Source: Okamejei kenojei (taxonomy: Eukaryota). Taken from it: a stretch of DNA of 64,000 nt. Position numbers and translations under genes: made by a program. Position 1 is the stretch's first letter; every line of letters starts with the position of its first letter. The notes beneath the pieces were generated by a model. It searched no databases and had not been told where the DNA came from. It saw nothing but the letters and a program-made list of their open reading frames with translations. Below, one piece after another: positions 20,733 through 48,430 of this stretch. The stretch lies in assembly GCA_035221665.1 (NCBI GenBank), contig CM069135.1:61442001-61506000 (forward strand), read 5' to 3'.

Positions 20733-22358
20733 CAGTGGCTTGCAAAGGTATTCATACCCCTTGAACTTTTCTACATTTTGTCACGTTACAACCACAAACG
20801 TAAATGTATTTTTTGGGGTTTTATATGATAGACCAACACAAAGTGGTGCATAATTGTGAAGTGGAAGGAAAATGATACATGGTTTTCAATTTTTTTTACA
20901 AATAAAAAACTGAAAAGTGTGGCATGTAAAAGTATTCAGCCCCCTTTACTCTGATACCCCCAAATAAAATCCAGTGCAACCAATTGCCTTCAGAAGTCAC
21001 CTAATTAGTAAATAGAGTCCACGTGTGTAATCTAATCTCAGTATAAATACACCTGTTCTGTGAAGGCCTCAGAGGTTTGTTAGAGAACATTAGTGAACAA
21101 ACAATGTTCCTTGGGCATAATGAAGCCCAAGGAACACACCAGACAGGCCAGTGATAAAGTTGTGGAGAAGTTTAAAGCAGGGTTAGGTTATAAGAAAATA
21201 TCCCAAGCTTTGAACATCTCACGGAGCACTGTTCAATCCATCATCCGAAAATGGAAAGAGTTTGCACAACTGCAAACCTACCAAGACATGGCCGTCCACC
21301 TAAACTGACAGGCCGGGCAAGGAGACCATTGATCAGAGAAGCAGCCAAGAGGCCCATGGTAACTCTGGAGGAGCTGCCGAGATCCACAGCTCAGGTGGGA
21401 GAATCTGTCCACAGGACAACTATTAGTCGTGCACTCCACAAATCGGCCCTTTATGTAAGAGTGGCAAGAAGAAAGCCATTGTTGAAACAAAACCATAAGA
21501 AGTACCGTTTGCAGTTTGCCACAAGCCATGTGGGGGACACAGCAAACATGTGGAGGAAGGTGCTCTGGTCTGATGAGACAAAAATTGAAGTTTTTGGCCT
21601 AAATGCAAAACGCTATGTGTGGCGGAAAACTAACACTACACATTACTCTGAACACACCATCCCCACTGTGAAACATGGTGGTGGCAGCATCATGCTGTGG
21701 GGATGCTTTTCTTCAGCAGGGACAGGGAAGCTGGTCAGAGTTCATGGGAAGATGGATGCAGCCAAATACAGGGCAATCTTGGAAGAAAACATATTAGAGT
21801 CTGCAAAAGACTTGAGACTGGGGCGGAGGTTCACCTTCCAGCAGGACAACGACCCTAAACATACAGTCAGAGCTACAATGGAATGTTTTAGATCAAAGCA
21901 TATTCATGTGTTAGAATGGCCCAGTCAAAGTCCAGACCCAAATCCAATTGAGAATCTCTGGCAAGACTTGAAAATTGCTGTTCACAGACACTCTTCATCC
22001 AATCTGACTCAGCTTGAGCTATTTTGCAAAGAAGAATGGGCAAAAATGTCAGTCTCTAGATGTGCAAAGCTGGTAGAGACATACCCCAAAAGTCTTGCAG
22101 CTGTAATTGCAGCGAAAGGTGGTTCTACAAAGTATTGACCCAAGGGGGCTGAATACTTTTGCACACCACACTTTTCAGTTTTTTATTTGTAATAAAATGT
22201 GGAAACCATGTATCATTTTCCTTCCACTTCACAATTATGCACCACTTTGTGTTGGTCTATGTCACATAAAATCCCAATAAAATACATTTACGTTTGTAGT
22301 TGTAACGTGACAAAATGTGGAAATATTCAAGGGGTATGAATACTTTTGCAAGCCACTG
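20733..22358 (+). mobile_element. Full-length Tc1 (IR/DR-type) DNA transposon
   Basis: TA|CAGTGGCTTGCAAA ... TTTGCAAGCCACTG|TA, ~210-bp TIRs with internal direct repeats, and an internal transposase. Confidence 0.96.
21120..22138 (+). pseudogene. Tc1 DD34E transposase with a single frameshift near 21263
   Basis: MKPKEH paired-like [25 protein letters not shown] and SPDPNPIENLW; 34 residues between the second D and E. Confidence 0.93.
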
Positions 22359-22859
22359 TATATAGAGAGAATAGAGCAGAGGACTGAGCACACAGCCTTG
22401 AAATGAGTTCCAATGCTTCTGATTTATCTAATTCATCTGTTTTTTAGCTACAGTGCTGTTTGGTATTCTGAACTCCAGCTGATTCAATTTTCTTTCACAA
22501 CAGTAGAAAAACTATCTCACAGATTAATTATTATCTATTCTGCAAATTTACACTGAAGTAGATCTTTCACCATCTCTAAACAGATAAAGTCCAGGGATAC
22601 ATGGGATGCAAAAAACAGTCAGTGCTGAACCAGGACTTGATAGTTTAAATTTGTCTGAAATATTTATATTATTTTTAAAACTATATGGACCTTCAGATTG
22701 AAAATCTATTGAAAATAATAAATACATCAAGCGAGAACTGAATGCAAGCACAATAAACTGTGGGTAAGTTTTCTTAATGTAAAAAGATTTAAGAATCAAT
22801 TTACTAGTGCATGTAATTAACATACACACAGGTGGTTCTGCAAGTGTTCATAAAGAAGA

Positions 22860-23800
22860 ATGGCGTGGAATGTGAAGATAATTATGGTGTAATGTGATGG
22901 ATGGGCAGTGAGCATTAATCACCTCCAATGGGATGTGATTTGAGGGGTAAAGGGGTTGTAGAGTATAAAGGTAATAATGTGCATTAGATTGGAATGTCGA
23001 CATAATGAGGTGATGCTATGTTACAGTGGAATGTGAGAGGTAATAATGGTGTTTTGTAATGGAGTAGGAGGGGTAATGATGATACATTGCAATGAAGTGT
23101 GAGGGGTATCAAATGTAATGGGGTGGGGTATATGAGTGATGATGATGTAATGGGAGCATGGTGTTAGAATAATAATAGTGAAAGGAATGGAATTGGTGGG
23201 ATAATGCTGTAATTAGGTGTGGTTGGTGTAAAGTTAGTGCAATGGACTGGGGATAATAGGTAGAATTGTAATGGGATGGGTTGTGAAGTTGAATAATGGT
23301 TGGGTTGTGAAGGTGTAATAATGTACTGCTTGATATATTCAGATGTACGATGGAATTGTACGTTGGATAATTTTGTAATGGGACGGTGTGATCATAATAA
23401 TGATTAAGTGTATTGGATATGAGGGCATTGTTTAGTGGCTAGGGTATTGTTTAGTGTTGCTAGTGGGGTGGGAATTAAGTGCAATGTTATGTAATGGGAT
23501 TAAGTGTGAATGACGGCATGGAATTGAGTGTGAGAGTAATGATGTGTATGTCAAAGGATGGGGTAACAAAGAGTAATAATAGTACAATGGATGGAGTAGT
23601 GAGAGTAATAGTGGTGCTGTGGATAGTGAGGTGTGTAATCATGATGTAAAGGGCTTGGATAGTGAGGAATAAAAATTGTCATTGGAATGAGATGAAAATA
23701 TGGTGTAGTGGGATTGTGTAACAGGGTAACAATGATATAATGGGGTGAGGCAATTGGGAGTTATAATGGTGTAATGAGCTGGGATGGGAAGGTATAATGA
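22860..23800 (+). repeat. Degenerate G/T/A-rich, C-poor low-complexity tract
   Basis: Loose gtaatgg/gggatg motifs with almost no C for ~950 bp. Confidence 0.7.
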
Positions 23801-23872
23801 GATATGTGTGGGGATATAGTATGCTGGATATTCCCTTTGTGTTTCAATCGTAGAAACAGGTTGCTACCCACG

Positions 23873-23951
23873 ATGGGATCCAGCTCCCTTACTTCACAGC
23901 AACTGCAAATTGTGCTGAGAATCATACTGGTTTACCAGTTCTGCAATGCAG
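23873..23951 (+). CDS. HJV: RGM/hemojuvelin-like, first coding exon (signal peptide)
   Basis: MGSSSLTSQQLQIVLRIILVYQFCNA then G|gtaaat, a phase-1 donor that joins in frame to ag|TGATGTCA at 28026. Confidence 0.7.
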
Positions 23952-24769
23952 GTAAATATCTTTCTTACATTTCAAACCACAGCACTAATCATGACCTGCA
24001 AATATGATGGTTTTTGAATGTGCCTGCTCACATGCAGGTTCAAATGTGAGTATATATTTTTTCTTCCTTTATAACTTCAACCAACATATAGATATGTGAG
24101 AGGTGTTAACCAAACAGAAAATATGCTGGGAAGATGTAGCTGCTTAGCAGCATTAAGGCTGGGTTCACGGGACAACTGGAATGGCCTTTGTGACCAGCTG
24201 CAACTGGGCCAAAAATGGTGCCTCTTGCATATTGACTCAGTGGGCTGTTCAGTACATCCTGTACTGACTGGGGAAAGTGTGCTTATGTATAGGGATAGTC
24301 ATCCTATCCTGACTTCTCCACTTTCTCTGCAACTGAAACCAGATTGATTTCAAACTGTTCCTCATTTTAATGAAAGGGGTCAACACAAAATGTTCAAACT
24401 CCCCAATGAGGTATGATATACTGAATATTTCTATAACTTCTGTGATTTTTTTTCTAGATTTCCAGCATCTGCATATTTTGATTTTAAATGGGTTTTTGAT
24501 GTTAAATTGTTTTATCTTTTCATCTATTTACACAATTGTACCAAATCAAAATCTAATTTAATGAATAAGGCTAGGTAATGCTGCAAAGAGATTTGATCAC
24601 AGTACCCTGCAGAAAGATACCATCTATTTGCTCCTTGTAATGATCATGTATAATCATTGTATTCACAGTTATAATTTTACTTTATCACACACAGAAGGAA
24701 TGTCCTGCAGACAGGATACAGTGACAAGAAACACTGGGGTAGCTTTGGAGTGCAAAATTCCAACACGTG

Positions 24770-27192: not shown

Positions 27193-28025
27193 CCCTAAGG
27201 TTAGGTAATATTCCCTGAAATTTAAGATTCAAAATATGAAGCCATTTGGACAGGATGGAATGTGAGAAACTCTCTTGGTCAGAATGTGTAGTACCAGGGA
27301 GCAAGTTTAAAGCAACAAACAGTGATTGAAACTTGGTCAATGGTTCATTTTAAATCTGAGATTAAATGTTATGGAATACAAAGCAAATGTGAGTATGTAG
27401 ATACTGGTCACAGATCAGTCCTGATCATAGTGAACAGATTGGGTGAAGAGGAGAAAGCGTGATTGGAAGGGAGATGGTGGGAAATGGCTTACCGCTGTTC
27501 TGAGATGAAAGTAAAATATTTACTGCAGGGCTGGAAATCTCAAAAAACAGGAAATGCTGGATATGTTCAGCAGGTCGGGATCAGTAGAGAGCGAAGACGA
27601 GTAAGACTGACAAGGTTTGAGATTATTCACCCATTTTCCCTGCTTTTCTCTCGACAGATGTTACCTGAACTGTTACATCAACATCTTTTGTCCTCATTCC
27701 TATTCTTAGATGCTCTTTGAATGCTCATGTTTTACTATGCCTGTGATTTTAATAATTATTTTTATTTTCAGTTCAATTATATCTGTGGTGTTATCATGAC
27801 TTACGCAGTTTGTCTCAATTTAGCCATTGTGCAGTTGTTAATGACTTTTTCTCTAGGTCCCAATGTGCCCGTGTTGATTTTTTTTTTGCCATTAATCCCT
27901 GTGTGCTTGCAATATTAATGTTGGATTTTAATTGTATTTCAAGAGTACATTTAGTGGCATTAATGCTTGATATACCCGTTTATGCAATGTTATTAAAGAT
28001 TCTTAACCTTTAATGCCATTTTTAG

Positions 28026-28525
28026 TGATGTCACAGTGCAGAATTCTCAGATGCAATTCTCAGTTTGTTTCTGCTACATCTCATCTTGACGATTCTTTGA
28101 ATGAAGACTTTTGTATTGCCTTGCGCTCATATTCGTGGTGCACCCAACGAACTGCTTGGTTCTGCCGTGGGGACCTAATCTACCATTCTGCTGTGCAAGG
28201 AATTGAGGATTTGATGATCCAGCATAACTGTTCCAAGGACGGTAAAGTCTCATTACCTCGACCGCACGTGCCAGCAGATAATCAAGATAATCTACATCTA
28301 CCAGACACTTGCAAATATGAGATGAGCTTTTACTTCAAACAGCGCCAGAAACCAACCTACCTTTACTGTGGCATCTTTGGGAACCTCCACATTCGAACTT
28401 TTTACAATGATTTTCAGACATGTCGAGTTCAGGGAGCGTGGCCGGTGATTGACAACAATTACTTAACCCTGCAACTGACTAATGCACCAATCGCACTACA
28501 TCATAACATTTCAGCAATCAGCAAG
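28026..28525 (+). CDS. HJV: RGM/hemojuvelin-like, second coding exon (RGM_N with RGD motif, start of the vWD-like domain)
   Basis: SQCRILRCN, ALRSY..CT.RTA..CRGDL.YHSAV.GIEDLMIQHNCSKDG and FQTCRVQGAWPVIDN. tttag acceptor and AAG|gt phase-0 donor. RGM family is clear; the HJV symbol is tentative. Confidence 0.9.
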
Positions 28526-29860: not shown

Positions 29861-30328
29861 ATGGATTAAGCCATTCTTCTCCATTCCACAGAACAGACAT
29901 GAGATTTCTGTATCAATTCACTCTTGCCCAAAAGATTTTCCAGAATTATTACCAGGAATTCAGCAAGTTTGTGTCCTGTCTCTGAACTCCATGTGCAGTC
30001 CAACAATGGACTGCAACAGGGAAGTTGCCTTCAGACTTTGACCAGCAAGTTCTGTACTTACTGATACATACAGGAAGTAAATACTGACACAAGGAACATA
30101 TTGGTAGCTTGGTGTTGAATTGCAGGTATTTCCTGATAATTTCCAAGCCTTTGACTGCAAGTAGAGTAACAAGAGGGTACTTGAATGCAGTGTACTGAAT
30201 GAATGACTGTGGTGCAATTGCACTGAGAATGCATGAAGAATACAGTAATAGTGAATAAGATTGGAGAAAGAGAATGGAAGAAAATGTAAAATTCAGAAAT
30301 GAATGATTCTTCTTTCATTGATTTACAG

Positions 30329-30946
30329 GTTACTGCTATTTTTAAGAACTCCAAGGAATGCATTGACCAGAAAGTGTATCAAGCTGAAATGGGCAATGTT
30401 CCTGCTGCATTTGTGGATGGTTCTGTAAATGGTGGCTTAAGAAATGGGGCAAACAGTCTGGTTATCAAGAAAATGTTGAGTGCTGGCTACGTGGAGATTC
30501 AAGCAAGTTATATTGGCACGACTCTGATTGTGCGACAGGTGGGTCAGCACCTGAGCATTGCCATCCTCATGCCAGAGGAGGTAGCAAGTTCACATACAGA
30601 GGATCAGGACCTACAACTCTGCTTAACTGGCTGCCCTTTCATTGAAAGGCTTCCGTGGACTACCCACCTCCATAATGCACAAAGGGCCAAAGCCAAATGC
30701 AAAGAGGGCCTGCTGGTTGAAGATAACTACTTCGAATCTTGTGTTTTTGATATCCTGGTGACTGGTAATCCTAATATTTCATTAGCAGCATTCAAGGCTG
30801 TGGAAGATGCAAAAATTTTATACCCAGACAAGGATTTGCTTCATGTGTTCAGGAACTGCTGGCCTGGTAGGCCGATCCCTTCCTGCCTTCCATTGTTGGT
30901 TTCTGTGCTGTGGGTGCTCTTCTGCAACAATATTTTTTTCTTCTAA
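30329..30946 (+). CDS. HJV: RGM/hemojuvelin-like, last coding exon (RGM_C and GPI-anchor signal)
   Basis: cag|GTT acceptor. IFKNSKECIDQKVYQAE, AFVDGSVNGG, VEIQASYIGTT, QDLQLCLTGCP and CKEGLLVEDNYFESCVFDIL, then a hydrophobic C-terminus and TAA. Confidence 0.92.
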   Translation, partial: VTAIFKNSKECIDQKVYQAEMGNVPAAFVDGSVNGGLRNGANSLVIKKMLSAGYVEIQASYIGTTLIVRQVGQHLSIAILMPEEVASSHTEDQDLQLCLTGCPFIERLPWTTHLHNAQRAKAKCKEGLLVEDNYFESCVFDILVTGNPNISLAAFKAVEDAKILYPDKDLLHVFRNCWPGRPIPSCLPLLVSVLWVLFCNNIFFF

Positions 30947-35704: not shown

Positions 35705-37068
35705 AAGAACTGCAGATGCTGGAGAATTGAGGGTACACAAAAGGCTGGAGAAACTCAGCGGGTGCAGCAGCATCTAAGGAGCGAAGGAGATAGGCGACGT
35801 TTCGGGTCGAGACCCTTCTTCAAACTGGTCAGGGATCAGGGAAATGAGAGATATAGACGGTGATGTGGTAGAGATATAGACGGTGATGTGGCTACCTGGA
35901 CTACTCTTCCTCCCACCCTGCTTCCTGTAAGGACTCCATGCCCTATTCCCAATTCCTCCGTCTATGCCGCATCTGCTCCCAGGATGAGGTGTTCCACACC
36001 AGGTCATCACAAATGGCCTCATTCTTCAGAGAACGGGGATTCCCCTCCCCCACTATAGATGAGGCTCGCACCAGGGTCTCCTCCATACCCCACAACACTG
36101 CCCTCTCTCCCCATTCCCCCACTCGCAAACAGGGAAGAGTCCCCCTGATCCTCACCTTTCACCCCACCAGCTAGCAAATACAACACATAGTCCTCCACCA
36201 GTTTTGCCACCTCCAACGTGACCCCTCCACTCGCTACATCTTCCCCCCATCTGCCTTCCGCAAAGACCGCTCCCTCCGCAACTCCCTTGTCAATTCTTCC
36301 CTTCCCTCCCGCTCTACCCCTTCCCCGGGCACTTTCCCTTGCAACCGCAAGAAATGCTACACTTGTCCCTTCACCTCCCCCCTCCACTCCTTTCAGGGAC
36401 CCAAGCAGTCCTTCCAGGTCCGACAGAGGTTCACCTGCACCTCCTCCAACCTCATCTACTGCATCCGCTGCTCCAGATGCCAGATGATCTATATCGGTGA
36501 GACCAAGTGGGGGCTTGGCGATCGTTTCGCCGAACACCTCCGCTCGGTCCGCAATAACCAACCTGACCTCCCGGTGGCTCAGCACTTCAACTCCCCCTCC
36601 CATTCCATATCCGACCTCTCGGTCCTGGGCCTCCTCCACGGCCAGAGTGAACAACACCGCAAGTTGGAGGAACAGCACCTCATATTCCGCTTGGGGAGTC
36701 TGCATCCTCTGGGCTTGCACATTGAATTTTCTCAATTCTGTTAACCCTTGCTGTCTCCTCCCCTTCCCACCTCTCCCTCAGCCCTCAAGGCCCTGGCATT
36801 CCCCCTCTCTCTCTCCCCCACCCTAGTCGCACTAGCTTCTCATTTTCACACCACAAACAGCTTACAATGGCTTTTCTCTTTATCATCGATACTTTTTTGC
36901 ATATCTTTCATTAATTGTTCTTTATCTCTTCACATCACCGTCTATATCTCTCGTTTCCCTGATCCCTGACCAGTCTGAAGAAGGGTCTCGACCCGAAACG
37001 TCGCCTATCTCCTTCGCTCCTTAGATGCTGCTGCACCCGCTGAGTTTCTCCAGCCTTTTGTGTACCCT
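35705..37068 (+). mobile_element. 5'-truncated Penelope-like element (Neptune-like) with an inverted pseudo-LTR
   Basis: One frame from ~35893 to 36744 with a single stop: YLDYSSSHP thumb, Cys linker CNRKKCYTC, and GIY-YIG NLIYCIRC..C..IYIGET...RFAEH. 35730-35866 is the reverse complement of ~36931-37068. Confidence 0.92.
36975..37002 (+). ncRNA. Minimal hammerhead ribozyme motif in the Penelope pseudo-LTR
   Basis: CTGAAGA-A-GGGT(CTCG)ACCC-GAAA-CGTC: CUGANGA and GAAA boxes, stem II, palindromic ACGT stem III and a GUC triplet. Confidence 0.65.
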
Positions 37069-38330: not shown

Positions 38331-40332
38331 CAGTGCCCTCCATAATGTTTGGGACTTTATTTGCCTCTGTACTCCACAATTTGAGATTTGTAATAGAAAA
38401 AAAAAATCACATGTGGTTAAAGTGCACATTGTCAGATTTTAATAAAGGTAATATTTATCCATTTTGGTTTTACCGTGTAGAAATTACAACAGTGTTTATA
38501 CATAGTCGCCCCATTTCAGGGCACCATAATGTTTGGGACACAGCAATGTTATGTAAATGAAAGTAGTCATGTTTAGTATTTTGTTGCATATCCTTTGCAT
38601 GCAATGACTGCTTGAAGTCTGCGATTCATGGACATCACCAGTTGCTAGGTGTCTTCTCTGGTGATGCTCTACCAGGCCTGTATTGCAGCCATCTTTAGCT
38701 TATGCTTGTTTTGGGGGCTAGTCCAGTTTTCTCTTCAGCATATAAAAGGCATGCTCAATTGGGTTCAGATCGGGTGATTGACTTGGCCACTCAAAAATTG
38801 ACCATTTTTTAGCTTTGAAAAATTCCTTTGTTGCTTCAGCAGTATGTTTGGGATCATTGTCTTGCTGTTGAATGAACTGCCAGTCAATGAGTTTGTTTGA
38901 ACTTGAGCAGATAGGATGTGTCTATACTCTTCAGAATTCATTATGCTACTGCCATCAGCAGTTGTATCATCAATGAGGATAAGTGATACCTTCAGCACCC
39001 ATAGATGCCCAGACCATAACATCCCCACTACCGTGTTTCACAGATGAGGTGGTATGCTTTGGATCTTGGGCAGTTCCTTCTCTCCTCCATACTTTGCTCT
39101 TGCCATCACTCTGATATAAGTTAATCTTTGTCTCATCTGTCCACAAGACCTTTTTCCAGAACTGTGGTTGCTCTTTTAAGTACTTCTTGGCAAACTGTAA
39201 CCTGCCCATCCTATTTTTGCAGCTAACCAGTGGTTTGCATCTTGCGGTGTAACCTCTGTATTTCTGTTCATGAAGTCTTCAGTGGACAGTGGTCATTGAC
39301 AAATCCACACCCGACTCCTGAAGAGAGTTTCTAATCTGTCGGACAGGTGTTTGGGGATTTTGCTTTATTATAGGGAGAATTCTTCTGTCATCAGCTGTGG
39401 AGGTCTTCCTTGGCCTGTCGGTCCCTTTGCAATTAGTAAGCTCACCAGTGCTCTCTTTTTTTCTTAATGATGTTCCAAATAGTTGATTTTGGCAAGCCTA
39501 ATGTTTGGCTGATGTCACTAACAGTTTTATTCTTGTTTCGCAATCTCATAATGGCTTCTTTGACTTTCATTGGCACAACTTTGGTCCTCATGTTGATAAA
39601 CGGCAATAAAAGTTTCCAAAGGTGATGGCAAAACTGGAGGAAAGACTACAATATTCCCCGGCAATGAAGACACTATTTTTTATCCTAAAATAAGGCCCGA
39701 AAATGTACCTGCGTCTTAGAGGCCGAAGGTTAGATTGTTAGCCAAGAAAGATAGACTTGGCTATTCCTCAGTACAGCGGCTGTAATGAGGATAGCACAGC
39801 TGCGGGGGGGGGGGGGGGGGGGGGGGGGGGGGTGGAAAGAGTTCCTTCCACAGCTTGTGGGGAGTCTGGCCCGGGTCAGCACAGCTGGGCCGCCATGGGT
39901 AAAGTTAAGGGGAGGGCAGGAGCGTTGACAAGGAGGGGGTTGGGGATCATGTCAGTAACTCAGTACTCGGGACCGCCGGGACCGGACAGCGTAACTGCAG
40001 CTAGACCCGGGCCTTGCAGGCGACCTGGGAACTGCAGCTAGACCCAGGGCTCGCAAGCAACCTGGGAACTGCAGCTAGTCCCGGGGCTCGCAGGCGACCT
40101 GGAAACTGCAGCTAGACCCAGGGCTCACAGGCAACCTGGGAACTGCAGCTAGTCCCGGGTCTTGCAGGAGACCTGGGCACTACAGCCAGTCCCGGGGCAG
40201 GCGACCTGGGAACTGCAGCTAGTCCACGGAGGCAATTAAACACACCTGAGCAATTACAAACGCCTGTGAAGCCATGTGTCCCAAACATTATGGTGCCCTG
40301 AAGTGAGGGGAGTTATGTATAAACACAGCTGA
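38331..40332 (-). mobile_element. Degraded Tc1 transposon, interrupted and truncated
   Basis: TA|CAGTGCCCTCCATAATGTTTGGGAC TIR with internal direct repeat. RLQFAKKYLKE..FWKKVLWTDETKINL and [11 protein letters not shown] on minus. Partial opposite TIR at ~40278-40332. Confidence 0.88.
39648..40228. mobile_element. Insertion in the Tc1 with ~37-bp tandem repeats (possible pogo/Tc2-like MITE fragment)
   Basis: GC-rich block with about six copies of gcaggcgacctgggaactgcagctag at ~39990-40228. Confidence 0.5.

Positions 40333-47289: not shown

Positions 47290-48430
<1,141 letters not shown>

Follow-up and report, generated by a model that had tools for sequence, protein, structure and literature searches.

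Loss of the GDPH self-cleavage motif from human hemojuvelin (HJV, RGMc) leads to severe iron overload, and the cut at that motif is kept in RGM proteins from sea anemone to humans; its purpose is nevertheless not known, according to a 2024 paper (PMC10880436). A locus in the skate Okamejei kenojei raises the question of whether a vertebrate RGM protein can do without the cut, since in the 64,000-nucleotide stretch analysed here (the window; contig CM069135.1, 61,442,001 to 61,506,000) an open RGM gene reads GNLH at the family GDPH position. The gene consists of three coding exons separated by GT..AG introns, giving 398 codons and a stop, and its features are placed in the window as follows.

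23873..23951, + strand: first coding exon, with ATG, 26 codons plus one base and a likely signal peptide; its N-terminus matches Amblyraja P0002.
28026..28525, + strand: second coding exon, with the N-terminal helical (BMP-binding) domain and the start of the VWD (RGM_N, E 1.2e-26; RGM_C, E 6.7e-20).
28166..28174, + strand: RGD motif, residues 74-76 (human R98-G99-D100), kept in 9/9 elasmobranch proteins.
28370..28372, + strand: Gly142, aligned to the site of human A168; Gly in skate, Asp in five of six sharks.
28379..28390, + strand: GNLH replacing the GDPH autocleavage motif, residues 145-148, from codons and alignment.
28436..28438, + strand: Ala164, presumably the equivalent of RGMB A186 (neogenin site 1), counting from RGMB Asp168; kept in 9/9.
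30329..30946, + strand: third coding exon, with the rest of the VWD/C-terminal domain, a segment without a furin site, a hydrophobic GPI-type tail and the stop.

The original prediction had placed the altered motif at 28366..28402, which is correct as to the motif and one base early as to its start: CGIFGNLHIRTF is coded by 28367-28402 (+). Its reading of GNLH in an open frame of about 398 amino acids holds codon by codon (GGG 28379-81, AAC 28382-84, CTC 28385-87, CAC 28388-90), and in an alignment to human RGMB the skate GNLH falls exactly on GDPH. There is no Asp-Pro dipeptide in the whole 398-aa protein. Pfam RGM_N (PF06535) and RGM_C (PF06534) both score above cut-off, the second coding exon finds PDB matches to RGMB, RGMA and HJV, and the cysteine pattern and the RGD/RGN motif of the family are present. 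Of the signal peptide, RGD and GPI signal also predicted, the RGD is in place, and by hydropathy alone the two termini look hydrophobic, their 11-residue maxima being 2.18 and 2.85. An extra non-coding exon upstream of 23873-23951 is likely; the region just upstream of that exon (23000-23800) is G-/T-rich and of low complexity, with a GC skew of 0.37 in 22001-24000. The skate protein is identical at 382 of 398 positions (∼96%) to a protein annotated as "RGM A-like" in Amblyraja radiata (P0002).

To read GDPH the motif would need two base changes, at 28382 and 28386. Four of the 24 listed sequencing runs were covered by the read check; in run X5, a DNA contig (27173-28644) has three differences, two of them listed away from the motif, and in run X9 a contig (27853-28523) has five, four of them listed away from it. 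Because at most one difference per contig is unplaced and two changes are needed, neither contig can read GDPH, by a counting argument over the differences listed. Both come from samples and studies other than those of the runs that contain the sequence best, and two independent runs are thus incompatible with GDPH. The exons are barely covered in run X20. An X18 contig carries 213 letters from another place ahead of its start at 28024, and its depth value of 9.96 recurs at 23860, within the first coding exon. On the two sides of the second intron, X9 contigs stop at 28523 and at 30327, although one X9 contig runs into intron sequence. Contig ends at splice sites in these two putative RNA runs are a hint of splicing.

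The same change is found well beyond the skate. A search with the skate protein returned 106 matches, the top nine being from three batoids (Amblyraja, Narcine, and Hypanus) and six sharks (Heptranchias, Heterodontus, Rhincodon, Hemiscyllium, Cetorhinus, and Scyliorhinus); Asp-Pro is missing in all nine, with GNLH in eight and GSLH in Cetorhinus, so the orthologues in sharks and rays to which the original prediction had pointed share the loss. For a wider count, 237 listed proteins (90% cluster representatives, P0223 left out) were classed by best BLAST hit, one of the three source searches contributing 120 of 637 matches. Among the proteins listed, GDPH is present in 225/228 outside the elasmobranch clade (HJV-class, 133/136; RGMa, 65/65; RGMb, 2/2; RGMd, 25/25) and in 0/9 within it. 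A further 148 representatives at 50% comprise 110 with GDPH, 7 with another motif and 31, many of them partial, without a pattern match; distant RGM relatives with non-GDPH motifs (GGTH, GHTH, GDQH, GAPD, GSRH) are P0266, P0328, P0345, P0352, and P0355. Since sequences of Nematostella, hagfish and coelacanth in the supplement of PMC10605842 carry GDPH, that motif is ancestral. The change from GDPH to GNLH predates the separation of sharks from batoids and lies on a stem branch that gathered many further changes.

This gene could also have been read as a sequencing error or a young pseudogene, as the motif change itself would allow and as the original prediction had suggested in proposing an early-stage pseudogene. 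That reading is extremely improbable: 9/9 orthologues share a loss that is fixed in sharks and batoids, X5 and X9 exclude GDPH, frames and splice sites are intact, and the gene diverges as RGMa does. The core identity between Heptranchias and Narcine is 262/309 (84.8%) for this gene and 273/320 (85.3%) for RGMa, and two further pairs using related species give 89.0 versus 87.7 and 85.4 versus 85.0. Moreover, 8/8 coding differences among the read differences listed are synonymous, compared with 34.7% of possible transitions (p about 2e-4). We thus rejected both the sequencing error and the pseudogene and conclude that the gene has been under purifying selection since the motif was lost.

As to which RGM this is, the database label says RGMa and the original prediction had said a paralogue. 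In a 45-row tree (LG+G4), the skate protein falls with eight from other elasmobranchs in one clade (99/98). P0223 joins this clade at 99/98, and the enlarged group has bony-vertebrate HJV as its sister (99/99), separate from RGMa, RGMb, and RGMd. With the long P0223 row removed (also LG+G4), the elasmobranch clade and bony HJV group at 100/99, and a quick mixture-model tree of 71 rows agrees on the HJV sister placement. Forcing the clade into RGMa, as labelled, was rejected (p-AU 0.0012), as was forcing it into RGMd (p-AU 2.1e-5); cyclostome RgmC-like rows have no stable grouping with HJV across trees. Separate elasmobranch RGMa proteins that keep GDPH occur in 7 genera among the matches listed, and a skate has a separate RGMd (P0364), also with GDPH. 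It is thus very likely that the gene is the elasmobranch orthologue of hemojuvelin, "paralogue" being probably the wrong word. This suggests that the hemojuvelin of sharks goes unrecognised in databases under the name "RGM A-like". The stem branch to the clade measures 0.55, versus 0.19 for shark RGMa, and this length is compatible with rapid change at first and stasis afterwards.

The protein P0223 (378 aa, from a 2070-base Logan contig) reads GRLH and shares the Leu of GNLH; its best matches are in the elasmobranch clade. It is highly diverged, sits on a long branch and has neither the first helix nor a signal peptide. Tests that placed it with bony HJV (p-AU 0.018) or with ray-finned HJV (0.008) ended in rejection, though its long branch calls for caution on both values. 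If P0223 is a chimaera protein, the loss of Asp-Pro is older still.

Alternatively, one could envision a relocated duplicate, with a canonical GDPH hemojuvelin also present in elasmobranchs and missing from assemblies or annotations. The neighbourhood invites this thought. Bony HJV adjoins TXNIP, POLR3GL, and ANKRD34A (PMC10605842, supplement file 11), none of which was found in 285 stop-free frames of the 64-kb window (26 of them upstream of the gene) by a scan that covered the window from 12900 on (up to 23800 the longer frames only) and can miss shorter exons. The frames between the RGM gene and its nearest recognisable 3′ neighbour hold only transposon domains and weak sub-threshold matches. 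That neighbour is:

47868..48421, + strand: first coding exon of an XK-related (XKR) gene (Pfam XK-related, E 1.2e-26; exon end read by eye).

The XKR gene is probably XKR6-like and is not a known neighbour of HJV; its first exon stands behind a C-rich repeat stretch. Tc1/mariner-type transposon copies lie at about 20740-22360 (+), where a 314-codon stop-free frame (21194-22135) has HTH and DDE domains, and at about 38700-39650 (-), and a weak GIY-YIG match below cut-off (36175-36741 (+), E 0.004) is possibly a Penelope-like element.

Because synteny differs from that of bony HJV, with XKR and not TXNIP alongside, relocation is conceivable, and the gene may have moved or may be a duplicate of an unassembled parent. 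Assemblies of GC-rich microchromosomes are often poor, and part of the evidence, from one search, is drawn from 120 of 637 matches listed. In squamates there is a second hjv, and one snake copy (P0178) independently reads GNLH, an example of a duplicate going down this path. However, the tree follows the species relationships and needs no duplication, and no GDPH-bearing cartilaginous-fish HJV appears among the named rows of the 106 matches, of the 120 of 637 listed or of a third search, even as shark RGMa (7 genera) and a skate RGMd are found in these searches. The PMC10605842 supplement sequences covered here include RgmA, B, and D of Callorhinchus and no RgmC. We consider a hidden second hemojuvelin improbable, and the orthologue reading is retained in what follows.

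Asp-Pro has been lost elsewhere on the HJV side. A hemojuvelin-like duplicate of the snake Candoia aspera (P0178) has the tetrapeptide of the elasmobranchs, GNLH, and because joining it to the elasmobranch clade is rejected (p-AU 4e-58), this is an independent event. Among teleost hemojuvelins, Nothobranchius P0056 and P0293 read GDLH and Esox P0078 reads GDSH; the Candoia, Nothobranchius and Esox motifs are single records and may include errors. Lizards and snakes carry two hjv-like genes (P0118/P0137, P0185/P0188), and the second copy of Thamnophis, unlike that of Candoia, keeps GDPH. In this set of proteins, vertebrate losses of Asp-Pro are confined to the HJV side, which suggests that HJV, unlike RGMa, b, and d, is able to drop the cut and makes the elasmobranch case less unique.

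A second processing site carries no weight in this argument. The original prediction had noted that the furin site of HJV is missing, and this is true of the corresponding segment (ERLPWTTHLHNAQR, 30644-30685), which has no R-x-[KR]-R; it is uninformative, however, because non-mammalian HJVs of the set, including those of sturgeon, paddlefish, and bichir, are also without it, as are 9/9 elasmobranchs. The polybasic motif is present in 13/107 readable segments (7 more being unreadable), namely 12 mammal-type hemojuvelins, the only hemojuvelins here to have it, and one amphibian RGMa. The alignment in PMC2323002 shows the site for seven mammals only.

What, then, becomes of a hemojuvelin with GNLH? 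Since the Asp and the Pro are both gone, and no Asp-Pro occurs anywhere else in the protein, it should stay one chain, and judging from its homologues we hold this with strong confidence. The single-chain, non-self-cleaving RGM of the original prediction is thus the best reading: the same Asp-to-Asn change abolishes cleavage in FCGBP, in which GDPH changed to GNPH or GAPH is not cut and the uncut forms are less stable (PMC10880436), and here the Pro is lost as well. Without the Asp nucleophile and the Pro, the turn between β1 and β2 of the VWD would be unable to cleave itself, and the surface form would be a GPI-anchored single chain only.

Two chains might still be made near the site through an Asn-mediated cleavage or by a protease. 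Self-cleavage at Asn-Pro exists in other proteins, the Asn is kept in 8/9 elasmobranchs, and the equivalents of His174 and Arg176 are invariant in the clade. We regard this route as very improbable all the same, given that the Pro is gone and that Cetorhinus has Ser, and P0223 Arg, at the place of the Asn; in addition, GNPH is uncleaved in FCGBP (PMC10880436), and sharks tolerate A168D, a change at a residue whose human mutants fail to autoproteolyse (PMC4395201). Five of the six sharks (P0003, P0005, P0006, P0008, and P0009) have Asp at the human Ala168 site, and A168D is a human haemochromatosis allele (mutation tables of PMC4026703 and PMC6370684). Such an Asp is expected once cleavage no longer matters; the loss of the cut may have freed neighbouring positions, A168D in sharks being an example.

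The remainder of the putative single-chain protein looks well maintained. Most positions in the N-domain, at the neogenin site and among the sites of human disease mutations are conserved in 9/9 elasmobranchs, including the cysteines (such as C80 and C119), G99, L101, H104, R176, A190, W191, R288, and G320; for RGMB, A186R is reported to make NEO1 binding inefficient (PMC8063088). In the AlphaFold model available for the Amblyraja protein (96% identical), a model that is silent on cleavage, mean pLDDT is 86.7 and reaches 93-96 around the motif, and the VWD superposes on RGMB VWD chains with an rmsd of 1.1-1.4 Å, the next matches being mucin and VWF domains. Changes specific to elasmobranchs include R95W and replacement of P124 and T125 in the N-domain and linker, and others lie at residues 182-191 (with the N187 glycosylation sequon kept) and at human I222 and L193 (I222A, L193V). 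The latter are candidates for compensation, their nearness to the motif being deduced from the description of FCGBP: changes on the stem near the site (the glycosylated loop 182-191, I222A) may stabilise an uncut fold.

On balance, we favour the view, drawn from homologues, that elasmobranch hemojuvelin is a working, single-chain, GPI-anchored BMP co-receptor. By a weaker inference, the intact N-terminal helical domain would bind BMPs and the protein would act as a co-receptor, with contact to neogenin probably retained; PMC4395201 cites a report that BMP-2 binds HJV in its single-chain form. Neogenin, on the other hand, is reported to prefer cleaved HJV, only cleaved HJV activated hepcidin in vitro, and non-cleaving HJV mutants in human cells lose all or part of their co-receptor activity (PMC4395201), so that function in elasmobranchs may have shifted, for instance to that of a BMP sink or modulator or to a developmental role uncoupled from neogenin or iron. 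The long stem branch (0.55), R95W and the replaced P124/T125 would fit such a shift, as would the report that knockdown of zebrafish hjv did not lower embryonic hepcidin (PMC3024971). We nonetheless think a shift unlikely, since the residues of the BMP and neogenin sites are kept and ferroportin has its hepcidin-binding cysteine from cartilaginous fish onwards (PMC8235187), so that the axis may exist in them.

A bolder version of the co-receptor reading would be that in all cartilaginous fishes, chimaeras included if P0223 is holocephalan, the sole hemojuvelin is obligately a single chain and works as a BMP co-receptor by virtue of compensating changes around the lost cut. We offer this tentatively and think it rather doubtful; were it true, GDPH cleavage would serve folding or stability rather than signalling, and the compensating changes might rescue human alleles such as D172E and A168D.

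The gene itself is known, as elasmobranch proteins are already publicly annotated as RGM A-like, and our searches of the open-access literature found no report of the loss. The elasmobranch loss is real, ancient and conserved, and it runs counter to what human genetics would lead one to expect. A conserved and apparently uncuttable hemojuvelin throughout a vertebrate lineage is a ready-made control and a natural test of what the cut is for: it could separate a role in folding or trafficking from one in BMP and neogenin signalling, settle conflicting reports on the active form of HJV and point to compensating substitutions for disease alleles. It also raises the question of how iron is regulated in sharks and rays.

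Compared with known systems, the skate gene is closest to bony HJV, with which it has in common RGM_N, the VWD and a hydrophobic tail, the cysteines, the RGD and most haemochromatosis sites; the elasmobranch clade has 52-58% core identity to bony HJV, its sister in the trees, and differs in lacking GDPH (GNLH in the skate), which HJV-class proteins keep in 133/136; in the skate window, moreover, the neighbour is XKR in place of TXNIP/POLR3GL. RGMa, RGMb, and RGMd have the same domains and 52-56% core identity to the elasmobranch protein, and in this set 92/92 of them have GDPH, in contrast to the GNLH of the skate. The hjv genes of Candoia, Nothobranchius and Esox resemble those of elasmobranchs in having lost Asp-Pro within the HJV lineage, but these are single records, whereas the elasmobranch loss is fixed over a large clade.

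The uncleaved VWDs of MUC2, MUC5AC, MUC5B, and VWF have the same fold as the skate protein (structural matches of E 9e-9 and weaker), with 10-14% identity, and belong to multi-domain polymer proteins rather than BMP co-receptors; the PDB sequence searches reached no mucin or VWF domain. MUC2 D1 may have a similar Gly-Asn-x-His turn. Uncleaved mucin and VWF structures without a cleaved GDPH are cited in PMC10880436, and thus the VWD fold can work uncut. Human HJV with A168D, F170S, D172E or R176C and FCGBP with D4080N offer the nearest parallel to what we propose here, a single chain resulting from changes at or beside GDPH. The non-cleaving human HJV mutants, however, are disease alleles with defective hepcidin activation, whereas in elasmobranchs the corresponding state is fixed and conserved.
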